From Microbotryum violaceum (Eukaryota), in contig CDLV01000012.1 in the NCBI GenBank assembly GCA_001244265.2, positions 1,116,001 through 1,180,000 on the forward strand: 64,000 nucleotides of DNA, written 5' to 3'. The notes below the pieces were generated by a model that saw nothing but the letters and a program-made list of their open reading frames with translations, was not told where the DNA came from and did not search any database. Each line of letters begins with the position of its first letter. Positions within the stretch are counted from its first letter, which is position 1. The position numbers and the translations under genes are program-made. Positions 32,170-38,519 of this stretch are shown one piece after another.

Positions 32170-35100
32170 TCATTTCAAAGGATCGAAATCACTCCAGGCG
32201 CCGAAATCGCCATTGCTTGGTTTCCTCGGTTGCGTAACAACTTTGGGTTGCAGAACGTCCCATTGTTTCGGAGCTGGTGTTGATGGTGGTGCAGGTGCGA
32301 CGTAGGACATTGACATGGAAGGTTGGGAAGGTGTTGAAGATGCCCACGGATTTGGATTGGGTGGGGAGAAGGAGGAAGAATTGGGGACGAGTGGGGGAAG
32401 GGTGTTGGTTGTTGTTGTTGTTGCGGTGAGGGAGTGGTAATTGGGTCGTGGGGAGGAGTAGGAGGATGTGGTCGAGTTGTTGGTTTGGTTTGGTAGGGAG
32501 GGTAGGGAAGATAAAGAGGATCGAGTAGGTTCCAAAGATGTGAAAGAGCTCATCGAGTTCGAGGATGAAGAAGCGAAAGCGGACGAAGCAGCGGGGGGAG
32601 GAGGAGGTGAAACCAGCGTCATCGAACTGAGACTTGACGTCGTCGGTGTCATACTGGCCGTCGGCGCCCCAAAGGCGGAAGAGATGAGCGTCGAAGCCGG
32701 AACGGGTTTGGCGCCCAAGGAGCTGTGTGAAAGACTGCTCCTTGGAGAAGGTCGAGAAGGAGCGAACGAAGCGACCCCATTCGGAGGGGGTGTGAACCCA
32801 TGTGAGGTCGTGACGGACTGTAGATCATCTCGAGACCCCAAATCAGCGCAAAGATACGATGACACATGACCCAACATCCGAGAGGACTTACTCCCGGACT
32901 ATCATCGCCAAAGATATCAGCCGCGACTTCAGTAGCTCTTCCCAATCCAGCTCCACCTCGAACCAGGGCCTCAAAGTCCATCGGTGTTGATCCCGCACCA
33001 CCACCGCCTCTCGAAAGCGATCCACCGGACGTCGATTCTTCCAAGCGCTTTTGTTCCTGCAAGGCCTTCGTGTGCTCGGTCTCTACGCGGTGTCCGATTC
33101 GTTTGATGACGGACATGAACTTGGCGAATTGGTCGGCCGAGAGCAAGGGACCCATTGACCACCTCCAAAGTTGGGGCAAAATTTGACTCGCCACTGTGCA
33201 CACCATTCACGTCTTAGTAAGCAACTTCCCTGTACGATATCACCCGCTCTGATATACAACTCACAAGCCTCTAGATCAACCTTGTCTCCGATCTTGGAGC
33301 ACACCTCGAGCGTCGCGAGCATCACCGCCGGTTCCTTGGTCTTGATCTTGGCCAGCAGTGGGACCAGTCGCTCGGTGATGGTGAACTTGTCCAGAGTCGA
33401 AGTCATCGAATGAAAGCAGATGAGCGTGTTGACTTTAACGCTCAGCATCGTCGTTTTGGTGAAGACCTGTAGGGCGAGGGCGTCAGTCAATTGGCGGATG
33501 TAGACAGGCAGCTGAGACAAGGGAGGGCTTACGGTGGTAATCTTGGGGAAGAGGGTTTGCTTGACCGTCTGCAAGTTCAAGGCGAGATCCGGCAATCAGC
33601 CTCCGCGTTTTCGACGCGACAAAAGTCATCACCACGCACCGTATAATCCAACGTCTCACACAACGAAGGCACCTCCTTGAGCGCCTTTTCCAACACGACC
33701 GGATTATCACTCTCCAACGAATAATAAACTAACGGCATGACCTCCTCCCTGAAAGACGTCGGTGTCGATTTCTCACTGAACAACGGCAACGAATCCAAGA
33801 GAGCTAGGATCGCTTGAGGTGGATCCTTGATTTTGAACAAGGGAATGAGATGGGGGAGGACTTGGGAGCGGAAGGCATCGACGTCCATGCGTTGACCGAT
33901 GTAGGCGATGTTGGGAAGGAGGAAAGGGATCAAATGGGTCTTGTTCGTCTCTTCCAGGAGGGAGGGCAGTACTTTGCGTCGGTTGACTTTGTCGCTGAAT
34001 TGCGGGAGGACCTGTAAGCGTTTCAAAACACCCGGAACGCATGAGTTTTTCTCTCCCCCACGACACCGGGAAGAACGCCTGACATCGCCTCACAATGAGC
34101 AAACCCTTGAGGAACCCCGTCTGCGCTTCAGTCGATTGACTCGCGAACGCATCCCTAGCGATAAAGTTGAGCGTCGAAACGAGCAAGCTGGAAAAGTAGC
34201 CATGGGCCAAAAAGGCCGCGGCGGAGATTCGTTGATTCGGATACCTCGTCACGAGTTGACCCAACGCCGATTGGGCCTCCTCCGTTAATCGTCGCCATTG
34301 TGGTCGGACCATGCCCCGTGAAAGGCCTTCTTCGATGTTGGTGCGCGCGTTGGATAGGGATTGTCGGTTTTGGAAGGGTGGTCCGGCGTGGGTGTGGATC
34401 GAGTGGAGGATGCAGCCGAGCGAGTACATGTCGTTCGCTGGGGTCGGGTTCGCCTCGTCGAGGATGTATTCCGGGGCTGTGCAGTGAGGTAGGCAGTAAT
34501 TCAGTGGTGTGCGTAATCATGATGAATCGGGAACAGAACGTACCGATATAGTCGTAATTCCTCTGGATCGTCGCCGGCAAGCCATGATCGTACGCCGGGA
34601 ATTCCCACTTTGTCGCAACCCCATCCGGGCCAAAGAGGGGTATCGACAAACCAAAGCCGGACAACTTCCAGTCCCCCTTGGCATTGATAACGACGGCTTC
34701 GGGGGTGAGATTGCCATGGATCGTCTTTGCGCTCTCATGAAGAAAGTGCAGGCCTTTAGCGAGTTGGGACAGGCCTTTTTGGATCTCGACCTCATCGAGC
34801 TCGAGGTCGCTCTGCTGCTGCACGGCGGCGGAGGAGGAAGAGGATCCGTTGCGTCGGTCCGAGCCTCGAGATATGGACCCTGCGGCGGACGAGGTCGAGG
34901 CGGATGCGGCGATCGCTTGTCGGAGCGAGGCGGTGACGGGCTCGGTAGCAAAGGTGATGACGGATCTGCGGACGGGGGACAAAGTGGGGGGAACACTCGA
35001 GCGCGTCAGTCGTGATCGTCGTGCACGGGCATCCGAGTCAGGCATGGGTCATCGGTTGATGGCGGTGTTGCCTACCTCGTCTCTTCAATCGGTTCTGCCA

Positions 35101-35654
35101 TTTCAAGGATGCAAGGGTGTCGTAGTCGGGACAAGGAGGCCGCCTAACTCGATGGGTGGGGGGTCGATTGTTCAACGTCCGAGTCAGCGCTCATAGGCCG
35201 CCAAGCCAACTAACACACCAAGAGCCAGTGCGCACCTCTTTCTTGAGCGTCTCTACAGCCTTTTCAAGCGTTCTCGCAGCATTGGGGTCTCGTTTGAGTG
35301 CTCCGGTCGGTGCTACAAGGGACGACTTGTCGCAGGACCATATCGAGACTTGCTTGCCCGAGCTGTTGTGCGATGCGCGTTCGACCTTCCACGGGCCGAT
35401 CTGCAGGGTCCGGATGGGGGCCGAGGAAGAGGAGGAAGAGATGGCTCCTGCTGCGGTGGCCGACGACGACGACGACGACGATGGCGAGGTGGCGGTCGCA
35501 AGGGTGTAGTTGGACGAGAGCGCGGACCTCGCGCCGAGTGAGGAGGCGGCCGATAGGAATGCGCTGGCGTACTCCCTGTGAATGAATACAGGCAAGTCAA
35601 ATTCGGTGTGACGGTTCTGAACGGAAGCCCGCATTTCTGCGCGCACACGCACAT
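32170..35654 (-). CDS. SCY1: SCY1-like pseudokinase (SCYL2 type) with HEAT repeats
   Basis: IGPWKV..VSIW..LKKE, LRHPCILE..EP.EETR, FATEPV, LDEVEIQKG..LHFLH..IHGNLTPEAVVINAKGDWKLSGFG; HEAT region; C-terminal DFDPLK. Confidence 0.93.
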
Positions 35655-36105
35655 TGTTGCAAAAGCAGCTTGATCGCTGCGTCGCTGCTCGAATACGGTT
35701 GTCGCGTGACACGCGGCGACGTGAACACCGACAGAGAGAAAGAGACTCGGCGAGAGCCAGCTGATCATGAGTAGCATATTTTTCCCATGCCATTTTGCGC
35801 TAAACTGCATGTACCCCCGCCAGATCTAAACGGGGAAATTGAGGGATACCATATCGTCGGGGAGGTTGTTATTGGGGTGTGGTGAACATTCCTGTGATTG
35901 AATATCCATAAAAAATTGCTGGCGGGGCGTCGGCCCGGGCGCCACGTGAAGAGCTCAGTCAGCTTGACCAGTCAGAGTCGGAGTGGACTTGTGATCCGCT
36001 GCTGTCTGCTGTGATTGATTACCTCGCGACTGCCACAAGAAAGTTGAGCTCGCGGACGTCTCTGGTACTCCCCACCACGCCCCACGCCCACTCGTCCCGT
36101 CCACC

Positions 36106-37256
36106 GTGGCTTCTCGACATCTTCTCAACCCATTGGCGCCATTGAATGCAGCTACCCCCTCCGCACTCGATGGCGTGCCATCTCGCCTCGAGCGGGACCT
36201 CCGAGCTTGCGAGTTGGCCTTTCAGCGACTCGCGTTCTCCTTCCATCCTGCAGTGCAGCTGACCCCGACTGGTGCGTTATCCCAACAGATGGTGCGATCT
36301 TGATCCAACAAGTCGGACTGATGCTCAAAGCGCAAGTCGACCCCTTGAGTTCCCCCTAATCGCAAAGGTCGACCTGGACAGTCCCTAATCCTCTCCAATG
36401 ACATCCCCCTACAGTCCTCAAGTCGTCATGGCCACAGCTCAAATCCTCTTTCAACGTTTCTGGTTCGTCACATCGCTCAAGCATTTCGGCATCCGGGTAC
36501 GTCACCCCATCCCTCAAAACCCAACTCAACCTCCGCGCCCTGCAGCTCACCTGACCTGGACGATCTCACTTGCGCTCTCAGGACATTGGCCTCGGCGCCC
36601 TCTTCCTCGCTTCCAAACTCGAAGAGTCCCCCATTCGTATCCGCGACTTGATCAACTGCTATGCCTACCTCCTCGAATTCATAGCCCACCAAGGCCGCCA
36701 ACCCACCACCACCTCCACCCCTCTTCCGTCCGACTACGTCCCGATGGATTATTTCGCCTCCTCCTTCTACGACACCAAAGATGCCCTCGTTGTCGCCGAG
36801 ATGCAACTCCTCAAACGACTCGGTTTCCAAACCCAATCCAATCTCCCCTACGGTCATCTCGTCAACTACCTCAAAGTGCTCGAATTGACCTCTTACCCCG
36901 AATTGGTCAAACAATCGTGGGGTTACGCCAACGACATGCTCCAAACGCCTTCCCCCGCTCTTTACCCCCCTTCGACCTTGGCAGTCGCGGCCATCTACCT
37001 AGCGACGAGGAAACATGATCCTCCGATCGCTTTACCTTTGGTTCCCGAACCGTGGTGGGTTTTGTTCGACGCAACGGAGGAGGACGTCGTCGATGTCTGT
37101 ACGCGACTGTTGGATCTGTATAGGCAGTGGAAATTGGATGCGTTTGGGGACGCCGATCAGGCTGGGATCTGGAAGGTGTGTGCAAAGTTGCCACATGACA
37201 AACAAGGGGTCAGGGATTTGATCGAACTAGCTACAGCTAGGAACAACAACGCATAG
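36106..37256 (+). CDS. Cyclin L-type transcription/splicing cyclin; putative GUG start and two GC-AG introns
   Basis: Spliced: (V)ASRHLLNPLA..TPSALDGVPSRLERDLRAY|GAILIQQVGLMLKA|PQVVMATAQILFQRFWFVTS..|ALFLASKLEESPIRIRDLIN..AEMQLLKRLGF..PYGHLVNYL..WGYAND..PWW.LFD. Confidence 0.88.
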
Positions 37257-37314: not shown

Positions 37315-38519
37315 TTAAAACTTTTCCTTGGCGGGTCTCAAATCCATTTCCAGCGTCCATTCGCTCGGATCCTGTTCGTTCAAATACTTGTACGCTTTCG
37401 CGATCGAGCCAGGTTGTAAAGCCAACGTCTCATCGTCCAACCAACTCTTTCCATCTTGAGATCGTTCATGACGATTGGAGAATAGGCGGGCCGTGGCTTT
37501 GGTTTTGATCGTACCGTCGACGATGACGAAGGCGACGTGCACACCTTGAGGTCCGAACTCGCGTGCGATCGATTGACTTAGGGCTCGTAGACTGGAGAAG
37601 ATGATCGCGGTGGTTAACTATTAAGTTGATGGGGTGCGTATTGCTTATCCGAGCTCAATGGCTCCGAAAACGAGAGGAAAAGGAAAAACCCACCCTGATT
37701 TGCCCGCAGCGAAAGCTCCGAAACCCAACGCCCCTCTCGTCGCACTCGTCGCACCCGTAATAATTAGCGTACCTATCGAACTCGAAAAGCCAAATGCACA
37801 TATCAGCAAAGCTCATCAGCCCCCCCATCCTCCCAAATTCACCTCCTACAGCATCCTCCTTCGCCTCCGAAGCCGGTTTTTCAAGAAACATCCTGACCGC
37901 ATGCTGAGCGAACGCGGTGGCGGAGATGATGTTAATCTGGGTGCTAGCGCGGATGTCGGATTCTTTAATATCGAGGAAGGGGATGTTGGACCTTAAGGGC
38001 AAAGATGGTTTTTTTGGATTTGTTAGGAAGTCGGTCATTGGAGCTTTCCCTCCAGACCCAAGTGGGGCGGCTGTGAGGAACTTGTCCTTTCAACCTCGAT
38101 CGTCCTCCGACTGCTCTGTTCGGAAAAAGCCCTCCCCACCCCCACCCCCCCCTCCCCCCGCCCCTTCTTCATCCCTCTCAATTTCCCCACTACCACCGAT
38201 CAGAGTTAAAATAAATAAACTAACTCACCACTGACTCGTATTCCAAACCGCCGTTCTCAACCTACTCCCGGGCCACTCCTTACGAACCTCTTTAAAAACC
38301 CTTTCCAAATTCTCATAATCATAAACCTGTACCGAAAAAAACTTTTACCTCCCCTCCCTTTCTATTCAACTCTGTACAAAGGTCATGAATGTCTTGACGC
38401 GGTCGGGAGATTAATCCGATGCGATAACCTTCGAAGGAGAATAAGCGTGCACAGGCGCCTCCGATCCCAACGCCGGTACCTAGGCCTGAGACGAGGAGGA
38501 TAGGCTTCAAGGTGGGCAT
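37315..38519 (-). CDS. Short-chain dehydrogenase/reductase (NAD(P)-binding Rossmann fold); apparent 1-nt frameshift at 38335-38341
   Basis: SGLGTGVGIGGACARLF; GTLIITGATSATRG..FGAFAAGK; LRALSQSIAREFGPQGVHVAFVIVDG; W..EMDLRP.KEKF*. Confidence 0.88.

Follow-up and report, generated by a model that had tools for sequence, protein, structure and literature searches.

A putative GUG start codon and two consecutive GC-AG introns in the cyclin L gene of the anther-smut fungus Microbotryum violaceum

Results

Structure of the cyclin L gene

The sequence considered here is a stretch of 64,000 nucleotides (nt) from Microbotryum violaceum (contig CDLV01000012.1), hereafter the window, and all coordinates are positions within it. 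Its + strand carries a cyclin L gene of four exons and 300 codons that ends in a TAG stop at 37254-37256, and this is the only copy of the gene within the window. A GTG codon occupies the ancestral start-codon position, and the first two introns both have GC donors. Translation probably begins at this GUG, a reading that is weighed below against several alternatives. Splice joints were seen in one contig of sequencing run X19, which comes from a related organism (organism C). The features of the gene are as follows.

36016-36018, + strand: TGA stop, in frame, closing the cyclin frame 30 codons 5' of the GTG
36106-36108, + strand: GTG at the ancestral start-codon position, the proposed GUG initiation codon, in the context ccaccGTGg
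36106-36208, + strand: exon 1, 103 nt, ending in phase 1, with the joint at 36208 seen in X19
36146-36303, + strand: three out-of-frame (+1) AUGs (36146, 36170, and 36289) and their short open reading frame (ORF), in the spliced mRNA
36209-36288, + strand: intron 1, GC-AG (GCGAGT ... ctgac ... cag), 80 nt, with an X19 joint
36289-36331, + strand: exon 2, 43 nt
36321-36323, + strand: first in-frame ATG, residue 46, the start in public models MVLG_03523 and BQ2448_1425
36332-36414, + strand: intron 2, GC-AG (GCAAGT ... ctaat ... cag), 83 nt, with an X19 joint
36415-36496, + strand: exon 3, 82 nt
36497-36581, + strand: intron 3, ordinary GT-AG (GTACGT ... cag), 85 nt, marked by contig ends only, with no direct joint
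36582-37256, + strand: exon 4, encoding the rest of both cyclin box folds and including the TAG stop

Identity of the encoded protein

Sequence relationships indicate that an anther-smut fungus of the genus Microbotryum probably has here its single, functional cyclin L gene. With exon 4 as the query, 447 of the 880 candidates were relatives, the best being those of Microbotryum saponariae (95% identity) and M. intermedium (84%), and several of the matches are named cyclin-L1 by their sources. The cluster of the best match (M. saponariae) also contains M. silenes-dioicae and M. lychnidis-dioicae proteins, and residues 46 to 300 of the window's protein are identical to M. lychnidis-dioicae MVLG_03523 (P0122) at all 255 of 255 positions, which places the window in this species or in a strain nearly identical to it. 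Cyclin L was compared with cyclins K and T using a full-length orthologue (P0004) in place of the window's own spliced protein. Among solved structures, the strongest matches of P0004 were human cyclin L2, at E = 1.1e-42, and cyclin L1, at E = 1.6e-41, with cyclin K (E = 1.5e-20) and cyclin T1 (about 4e-18) far behind, and its alignment to cyclin L2 already begins at P0004 residue 17. The Pfam Cyclin_N profile scored 32.4 and 28.8 bits in full-length orthologues and 28 bits in P0122 (cut-off, 23), and exon 4 alone, at 18.6 bits, falls under that cut-off.

Human cyclins L1 and L2 (CCNL1 and CCNL2, the CDK11 partners) are thus the best solved-structure matches to the full-length orthologue, with a likeness that covers both cyclin box folds from the TPS motif on. 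The fungal protein differs in having 300 residues and in ending soon after the second cyclin fold; the window translation stops about 40 residues past that fold and shows no arginine/serine-rich (RS)-type tail. Fungal orthologues are likewise short, at 280 to 340 amino acids. A C-terminal RS domain characterizes animal cyclin L and is not a defining trait of the fungal orthologues.

Within the Thr/Pro-rich linker of the protein, the X19 sequence of organism C has a 9-base insertion, CCACCACCA, behind 36702 in exon 4, and at this linker position the M. intermedium protein is expanded by Ser-rich sequence. The linker at 36702 is a length-variable loop between conserved helices.

The start region

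The GTG at 36106-36108 is flanked by an A at -3 and a G at +4. The + strand ATGs closest to it lie at 35809 upstream and 36146 downstream, with none from 35812 to 36145, and the sole in-frame near-cognate codon between the TGA at 36016 and the GTG is an AAG at 36037. A preliminary description of this stretch had proposed the GTG as the start of cyclin L, citing its context, the in-frame stop, and the lack of a + strand ATG over about 290 nt upstream, all of which the sequence bears out, the ATG-free stretch being some 295 nt long. It had also recognized a conserved cyclin L N terminus beginning at the GTG. Consistent with this, exon 1 (36106-36207) aligns with the N terminus of orthologue P0008 at 85% identity over 34 residues, with V(GTG)-ASRHLLNPLAPL in the window opposite M-ASRHLLNPLAPL in the orthologue.

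Start positions were counted in the 29 of the 120 listed orthologues that carry an NP[LI][AS] motif near the N terminus. A Met lies 6 to 10 residues before the motif in 28 of them, the exception being a Leucosporidium model flagged as partial. Ten further sequences of Agaricomycete type have a Met a few residues before an equivalent PLA motif, and the other 80, which carry neither N-terminal motif within the limits used, stand outside the count. The exceptional Leucosporidium model, L. creatinivorum protein P0003, starts at an L one residue before its NPLAPL motif and has no Met; the ancestral ATG might be missing in this lineage too, or the model might merely have a gap. An ORF search with 36019-36207 of the window returned six proteins, all from other Microbotryomycetes and all starting with M, and no Microbotryum protein was among these six matches. 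The "RAC" read-through in the six proteins cannot tell a GT donor from a GC donor, since Cys is encoded by both TGT and TGC.

Differences from organism C bear on the reading frame of exon 1. Three of the four X19 differences itemized in exon 1 are synonymous third positions, as are four of the five itemized in exons 1 to 3, the remaining one being N14D; over the whole gene, 30 synonymous and 9 nonsynonymous differences were found. The mis-framed M. saponariae model differs from the window at three residues, and the underlying base changes would all be silent third-position changes when read in the cyclin frame; one of them, 36177 G>C, is seen directly in the X19 data.

As the preliminary description had stated, the first in-frame ATG (36321) lies inside the cyclin box. 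The product from this AUG matches Cyclin_N only from profile position 49, compared with 21 or 24 for full-length orthologues, and profile positions 21 to 48 would therefore be lost by a start there. In the spliced mRNA, the AUGs at 36146, 36170, and 36289 all stand 5' of the one at 36321, all in the +1 frame and all with a pyrimidine at -3. They open one ORF of 25 codons, with a stop at 36301-36303 that falls 18 nt short of the AUG at 36321.

The two GC-AG introns

One X19 contig of 266 letters (record 7) joins 36208 to 36289, skipping 80 letters, and 36331 to 36415, skipping 83, and both skipped segments have GC..AG ends in the window. The two consecutive GC-AG introns of the preliminary description, at 36209-36288 and 36332-36414, are therefore both seen as joints in a single contig, from a related organism and in data of a kind guessed to be RNA. 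The same contig ends at 36495, and a second one (record 8) begins exactly at 36582. MVLG_03523 is spliced at the intron 2 junction seen in X19. Four runs were compared with the window (X2, X16, X17, and X19); X16 provided five short pieces at a depth of 2 to 4, and X17 provided a single 215-letter piece inside exon 4.

The donors (GCGAGT and GCAAGT) and the cag acceptors, together with the X19 joints, fit the pattern of U2-type GC-AG introns in having GC at +1/+2, consensus bases at +3 to +6, a CTRAY branch-like motif, a YAG acceptor, and precise splicing. They differ from the usual case in that two occur consecutively in one gene, both derived from GT donors that relatives still keep. GC-AG introns account for about 1% of introns in three other fungi, as described in PMC4084796, and the literature searched contained no paper linking Microbotryum with GC-AG introns.

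The preliminary description had further held that only GC donors restore the frame. This claim stands insofar as the GC introns are the ones spliced in X19, but it does not hold strictly, since an enumeration of nearby GT/GC donors and AG acceptors found three GT combinations that also keep the frame open (36213-36253, 36234-36253, and 36349-36422). These insert or replace residues found in no orthologue, and the X19 spliced contig is without them; one of the three is exactly the combination used in the M. silenes-dioicae gene model. A de novo scan of the window for frame-restoring introns gave 12 candidates for GT, 6 for GC, 6 for GA, and 8 for GG and did not discriminate them from control dinucleotides.

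Comparison with relatives

A scan of metagenome contigs recovered 12 orthologous loci, 10 of which (L001 to L010) represent about six Sporobolomyces-, Rhodotorula-, and Leucosporidium-like yeasts, i.e., other Microbotryomycetes. These 10 loci have the same three intron positions as the window. In all of them the start codon is ATG, donor 1 is GT (GTACGT, GTGCGT, GTAAGT, or GTAAGC), and donor 2 is GT (GTTGGT, GTGAGT, GTGCGT, GTACGC, or GTGAGA). The remaining two (L011 and L012), which are more distant, align colinearly and lack introns here; their start codons are outside the count. Given ATG and GT in all 10 outgroup loci, the GTG and both GC donors are derived states that arose in the Microbotryum lineage. 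Each of the three changes (A>G, T>C, and T>C) replaces A or T by G or C, and all lie within 230 nt.

Alignment of orthologues had been proposed as a check on whether the GUG and both GC donors are conserved, and the answer differs by taxonomic level. Outside the genus, 10 of 10 loci have ATG and GT where the window has the three signals, an outcome of the kind that the preliminary description had named as refuting its reading. Within the genus, the mis-framed models of M. silenes-dioicae and M. saponariae read Ala (GCN) over donor 1 and Gln (CAR) over donor 2, so that both species have C at intron position +2 of both donors, which in turn indicates that the GC donors predate the split of these species. 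Taken on sequence comparison, the three weak signals appear to have arisen recently within this one lineage and do not form a conserved circuit.

At +4 to +6, both GC donors carry the consensus bases A, G, and T, from which several GT donors of the outgroups depart at one position (GTACGT, GTGCGT, GTACGC, GTAAGC, GTTGGT, and GTGAGA). The consensus-strengthened donors, together with flanks that are the best possible for a GUG, look like compensation.

Public gene models

Four public models, MVLG_03523, BQ5605_C034g11281, BZ3500_MvSof-1268-A1-R1_Chr9g10768, and BQ2448_1425, describe this same gene. Two of them (MVLG_03523 and BQ2448_1425) start at the internal Met at 36321, and the other two start at an out-of-frame ATG (the equivalent of 36170) and force GT donors, which gives them nonhomologous N termini; the conserved N terminus is encoded by none of the four. 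All four would miss the true N terminus because gene finders demand ATG and, mostly, GT, so that the GTG start and the GC donors of introns 1 and 2 leave the models truncated or mis-framed. RNA-seq-based ORFs were given the highest weight in the M. lychnidis-dioicae gene models, according to PMC4469406, and the RNA-seq-weighted model MVLG_03523 found no longer ATG-initiated ORF. The main text of that paper makes no mention of MVLG_03523 or of cyclin.

Neighboring features

A - strand gene with a protein kinase domain (33773-35800; Pfam Pkinase, E = 3.4e-10 and 2.4e-05 in two ORF pieces) lies head-to-head with cyclin L and diverges from it. The 3' splice site-like sequence ttcattcacag precedes the conserved N-terminal frame of the kinase near 35560-35590 on the - strand, and the first exon and start codon of the kinase gene may therefore sit within 35600-35800, an interval common with the cyclin L promoter. 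On the other side, a - strand ORF at 37315-37617, for which Pfam gave no match at E = 0.001, converges tail-to-tail with cyclin L, its end lying some 60 nt away from the stop codon of the latter, and the 3' untranslated regions of the two genes probably overlap. A long C-rich tract (ccccaccccca cccccccctcccccc...) is found at 38140-38170, downstream of neighboring - strand ORFs.

Discussion

Initiation at GUG

At this locus, conserved coding sequence precedes the first in-frame AUG and is closed on its 5' side by an in-frame stop, with no intervening AUG; the near-cognate codon has a strong context, and out-of-frame AUGs lie ahead of the downstream AUG. Ivanov et al. (PMC3105428) describe how out-of-frame AUGs behind a non-AUG codon make that codon the sole start of the main ORF, with EIF4G2 as an example. 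From the exon 1 evidence, and because the arrangement of the +1 AUGs matches the logic of EIF4G2, we take the GUG at 36106 to be the probable productive start.

The ancestral ATG would have become GTG in this lineage, and the mRNA would now be translated from the GUG at 36106 by initiator Met-tRNA (Met-tRNAi) in near-cognate initiation, helped by the purine at -3 and the G at +4. Ribosomes scanning past the GUG would meet three out-of-frame AUGs before the in-frame one, leaving the GUG as effectively the sole productive start. Introns 1 and 2 would be spliced as U2-type GC-AG introns at positions where relatives use GT donors. From this we infer that, on balance, full-length cyclin L may be produced at a low level, one that possibly varies with conditions.

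Several points weigh against initiation at the GUG or against the evidence used for it. GUG, as a near-cognate codon, is usually inefficient in eukaryotes. Folding of 36095-36208 gave no RNA structure beyond that of shuffled sequences (z = -0.95; 34 of 200 shuffles fold as well), and the short +1 ORF, at 25 codons, could permit some reinitiation at 36321 or 36428. The letter at 36106 itself was checked, since an assembly error there would remove the case: a contig of run X2 (organism A, another study; 6,089 letters, depth of 224.7) is identical over all 1,801 aligned bases, so that the GTG is retained and does not appear to be a slip of this assembly, though X2 may be related to the source of the window and is not necessarily independent of it, which weakens this exclusion. 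The X19 data, which come from a related organism that is 90 to 95% alike and not from the window's own and whose kind is entered as a guess ("RNA?"), do not itemize differences within about 30 letters of a piece end, a zone that includes 36106-36108; in the piece over the start region, 6 of 10 differences are un-itemized. X16 record 2 is unspliced over 36128-36292 at a depth of 2.9, and it may be DNA or a retained intron. Finally, if the A>G change is very recent, a conserved N terminus says little, as there would have been too little time for decay.

Alternative explanations

If the public annotation were right, translation would start at the AUG at 36321 (or 36428), exons 1 and 2 would be a 5' leader, and the product would be an N-terminally shortened cyclin L. 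MVLG_03523 (P0122) and M. intermedium P0002 do start at Met 36321, an AUG is in general far more efficient than a GUG, and the preceding +1 ORF is short enough that some reinitiation is possible. Yet annotation pipelines accept ATG starts only, and their choice is not evidence; a ribosome would have to pass three out-of-frame AUGs and reinitiate just 18 nt from the stop of the +1 ORF; the product would lack Cyclin_N profile positions 21 to 48, although the homology to solved human cyclin L2 starts from orthologue residue 17; and most substitutions in exon 1 are silent when read in the cyclin frame. We consider a shortened cyclin L unlikely. More improbable still is an unseen upstream exon or an alternative transcript start that supplies an in-frame AUG, which the preliminary description had named as an outcome that would overturn its reading. 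The contigs are short, and the 5' end of the mRNA is not covered for the window's own organism, which leaves room for such an exon, but none was found: the TGA at 36016 is in frame, no ATG lies between 35809 and 36146, and the RNA-seq-weighted model found no longer ORF. In addition, the X19 contig is colinear to 36082 and then continues for 14 C/A-rich letters that resemble the C/A-rich tract of the window, positions 36080-36081 are cc and provide no AG acceptor, no joint was reported upstream of 36208, and the motif-bearing orthologues start at this very position (28 of 29).

Initiation at the GUG is compatible with either of two accounts of how the three signals arose. In one, slightly deleterious A/T to G/C substitutions at the 5' end of the gene were fixed by drift or by GC-biased gene conversion, with a lower output that is tolerated or that marks the first steps of decay. 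All three changes are from A/T to G/C within 230 nt, against ATG and GT in 10 of 10 outgroup loci, and they are confined to one genus; biased gene conversion has been mentioned among the possible causes of the GC patterns of this genome (PMC4469406). The intact ORF and the ratio of 30 synonymous to 9 nonsynonymous differences from organism C speak against a pseudogene, and the GC donors, which keep consensus bases at +4 to +6 where several outgroup GT donors deviate, and the GUG in its strong context look compensated and not decayed. Degeneration of this kind is a tentative explanation, though a serious one. In the other account, which corresponds to the attenuating or autoregulatory circuit of the preliminary description, the signals were selected as a sensor that ties cyclin L/CDK11 output to start-codon stringency and spliceosome capacity. 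Cyclin L-CDK11 has been reported to activate the spliceosome through SF3B1 phosphorylation, and at least three Microbotryum species retain both GC donors. Three rare signals within 310 nt would be unlikely if independent; at a GC-AG rate of about 1%, which was taken from other fungi and may not be that of Microbotryum (PMC4084796), about 3 genes per 10,000 would be expected to have GC-AG ends in two of their three introns. Set against this, the arrangement is not conserved outside the genus and its signals are absent from all 10 outgroup loci, feedback through weak donors in a spliceosome activator's own transcript would be positive and not homeostatic, and the case was chosen from a very large scan, in which a rare coincidence is expected somewhere. 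The proposed circuit is thus left without supporting evidence, and we regard it as doubtful. Because all three changes run from A/T to G/C, selection for a circuit is no more likely than a nonadaptive origin, whether through drift or through GC-biased gene conversion.

Similarly doubtful is the proposition that cyclin L of Microbotryum has been rewired, with the amount of full-length protein set jointly by start-codon stringency (a GUG in optimal context, backed by the out-of-frame AUG trap) and by recognition of two donors with C at +2. Were it true, a spliceosome-activating CDK11 kinase would respond both to the fidelity of translation and to the capacity for splicing, and it might act as a bistable switch at the yeast-to-infection transition.

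Relation to known non-AUG starts

With initiation at the GUG, the gene would resemble vertebrate EIF4G2 (DAP5/NAT1), where a sole GUG start in good context begins a conserved protein; the window has three out-of-frame AUGs behind its GUG. The GUG of EIF4G2 is conserved across vertebrates and experimentally proven, whereas that of cyclin L is known from one species, is a predicted start, and replaces the AUG of the outgroups. In mammals, a GCC-rich enhancer of non-AUG initiation has been described (PMC13754004); the tract upstream of the cyclin L GUG is simply C-rich. Near-cognate codons are also read in fungi, where they and AUG starts have replaced each other on several occasions in the course of evolution (PMC7049704, PMC5487733, and PMC7214817). 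Fungal non-AUG N-terminal extensions, such as those of aminoacyl-tRNA synthetases, cpc-1, and 6-phosphogluconate dehydrogenase, share the use of near-cognate start codons, but there the extension provides an extra isoform beside a functional AUG form. For cyclin L, the AUG product would be without part of the cyclin box, and the non-AUG product would be the only complete protein. By analogy, cyclin L here appears to belong with the EIF4G2-type genes that have a sole non-AUG start, with ordinary though doubled GC-AG introns. The literature searched held no relevant paper linking cyclin L with non-AUG starts.

Implications

The gene structure proposed here would correct how four published Microbotryum annotations, from as many species, model a conserved regulator of the cell cycle and of splicing. 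It also advises general caution, as models flagged "partial" or truncated, such as the L. creatinivorum orthologue, may conceal similar cases. If use of the GUG is confirmed, this would be a rare fungal case of a conserved core protein without an AUG-initiated complete form, and the replacement of AUG by GUG could be dated against close outgroups. The cyclin L gene of Microbotryum would then serve as a natural experiment in how a gene may survive the loss of its start codon, through a strong context, a downstream AUG trap, and consensus-strengthened GC donors.

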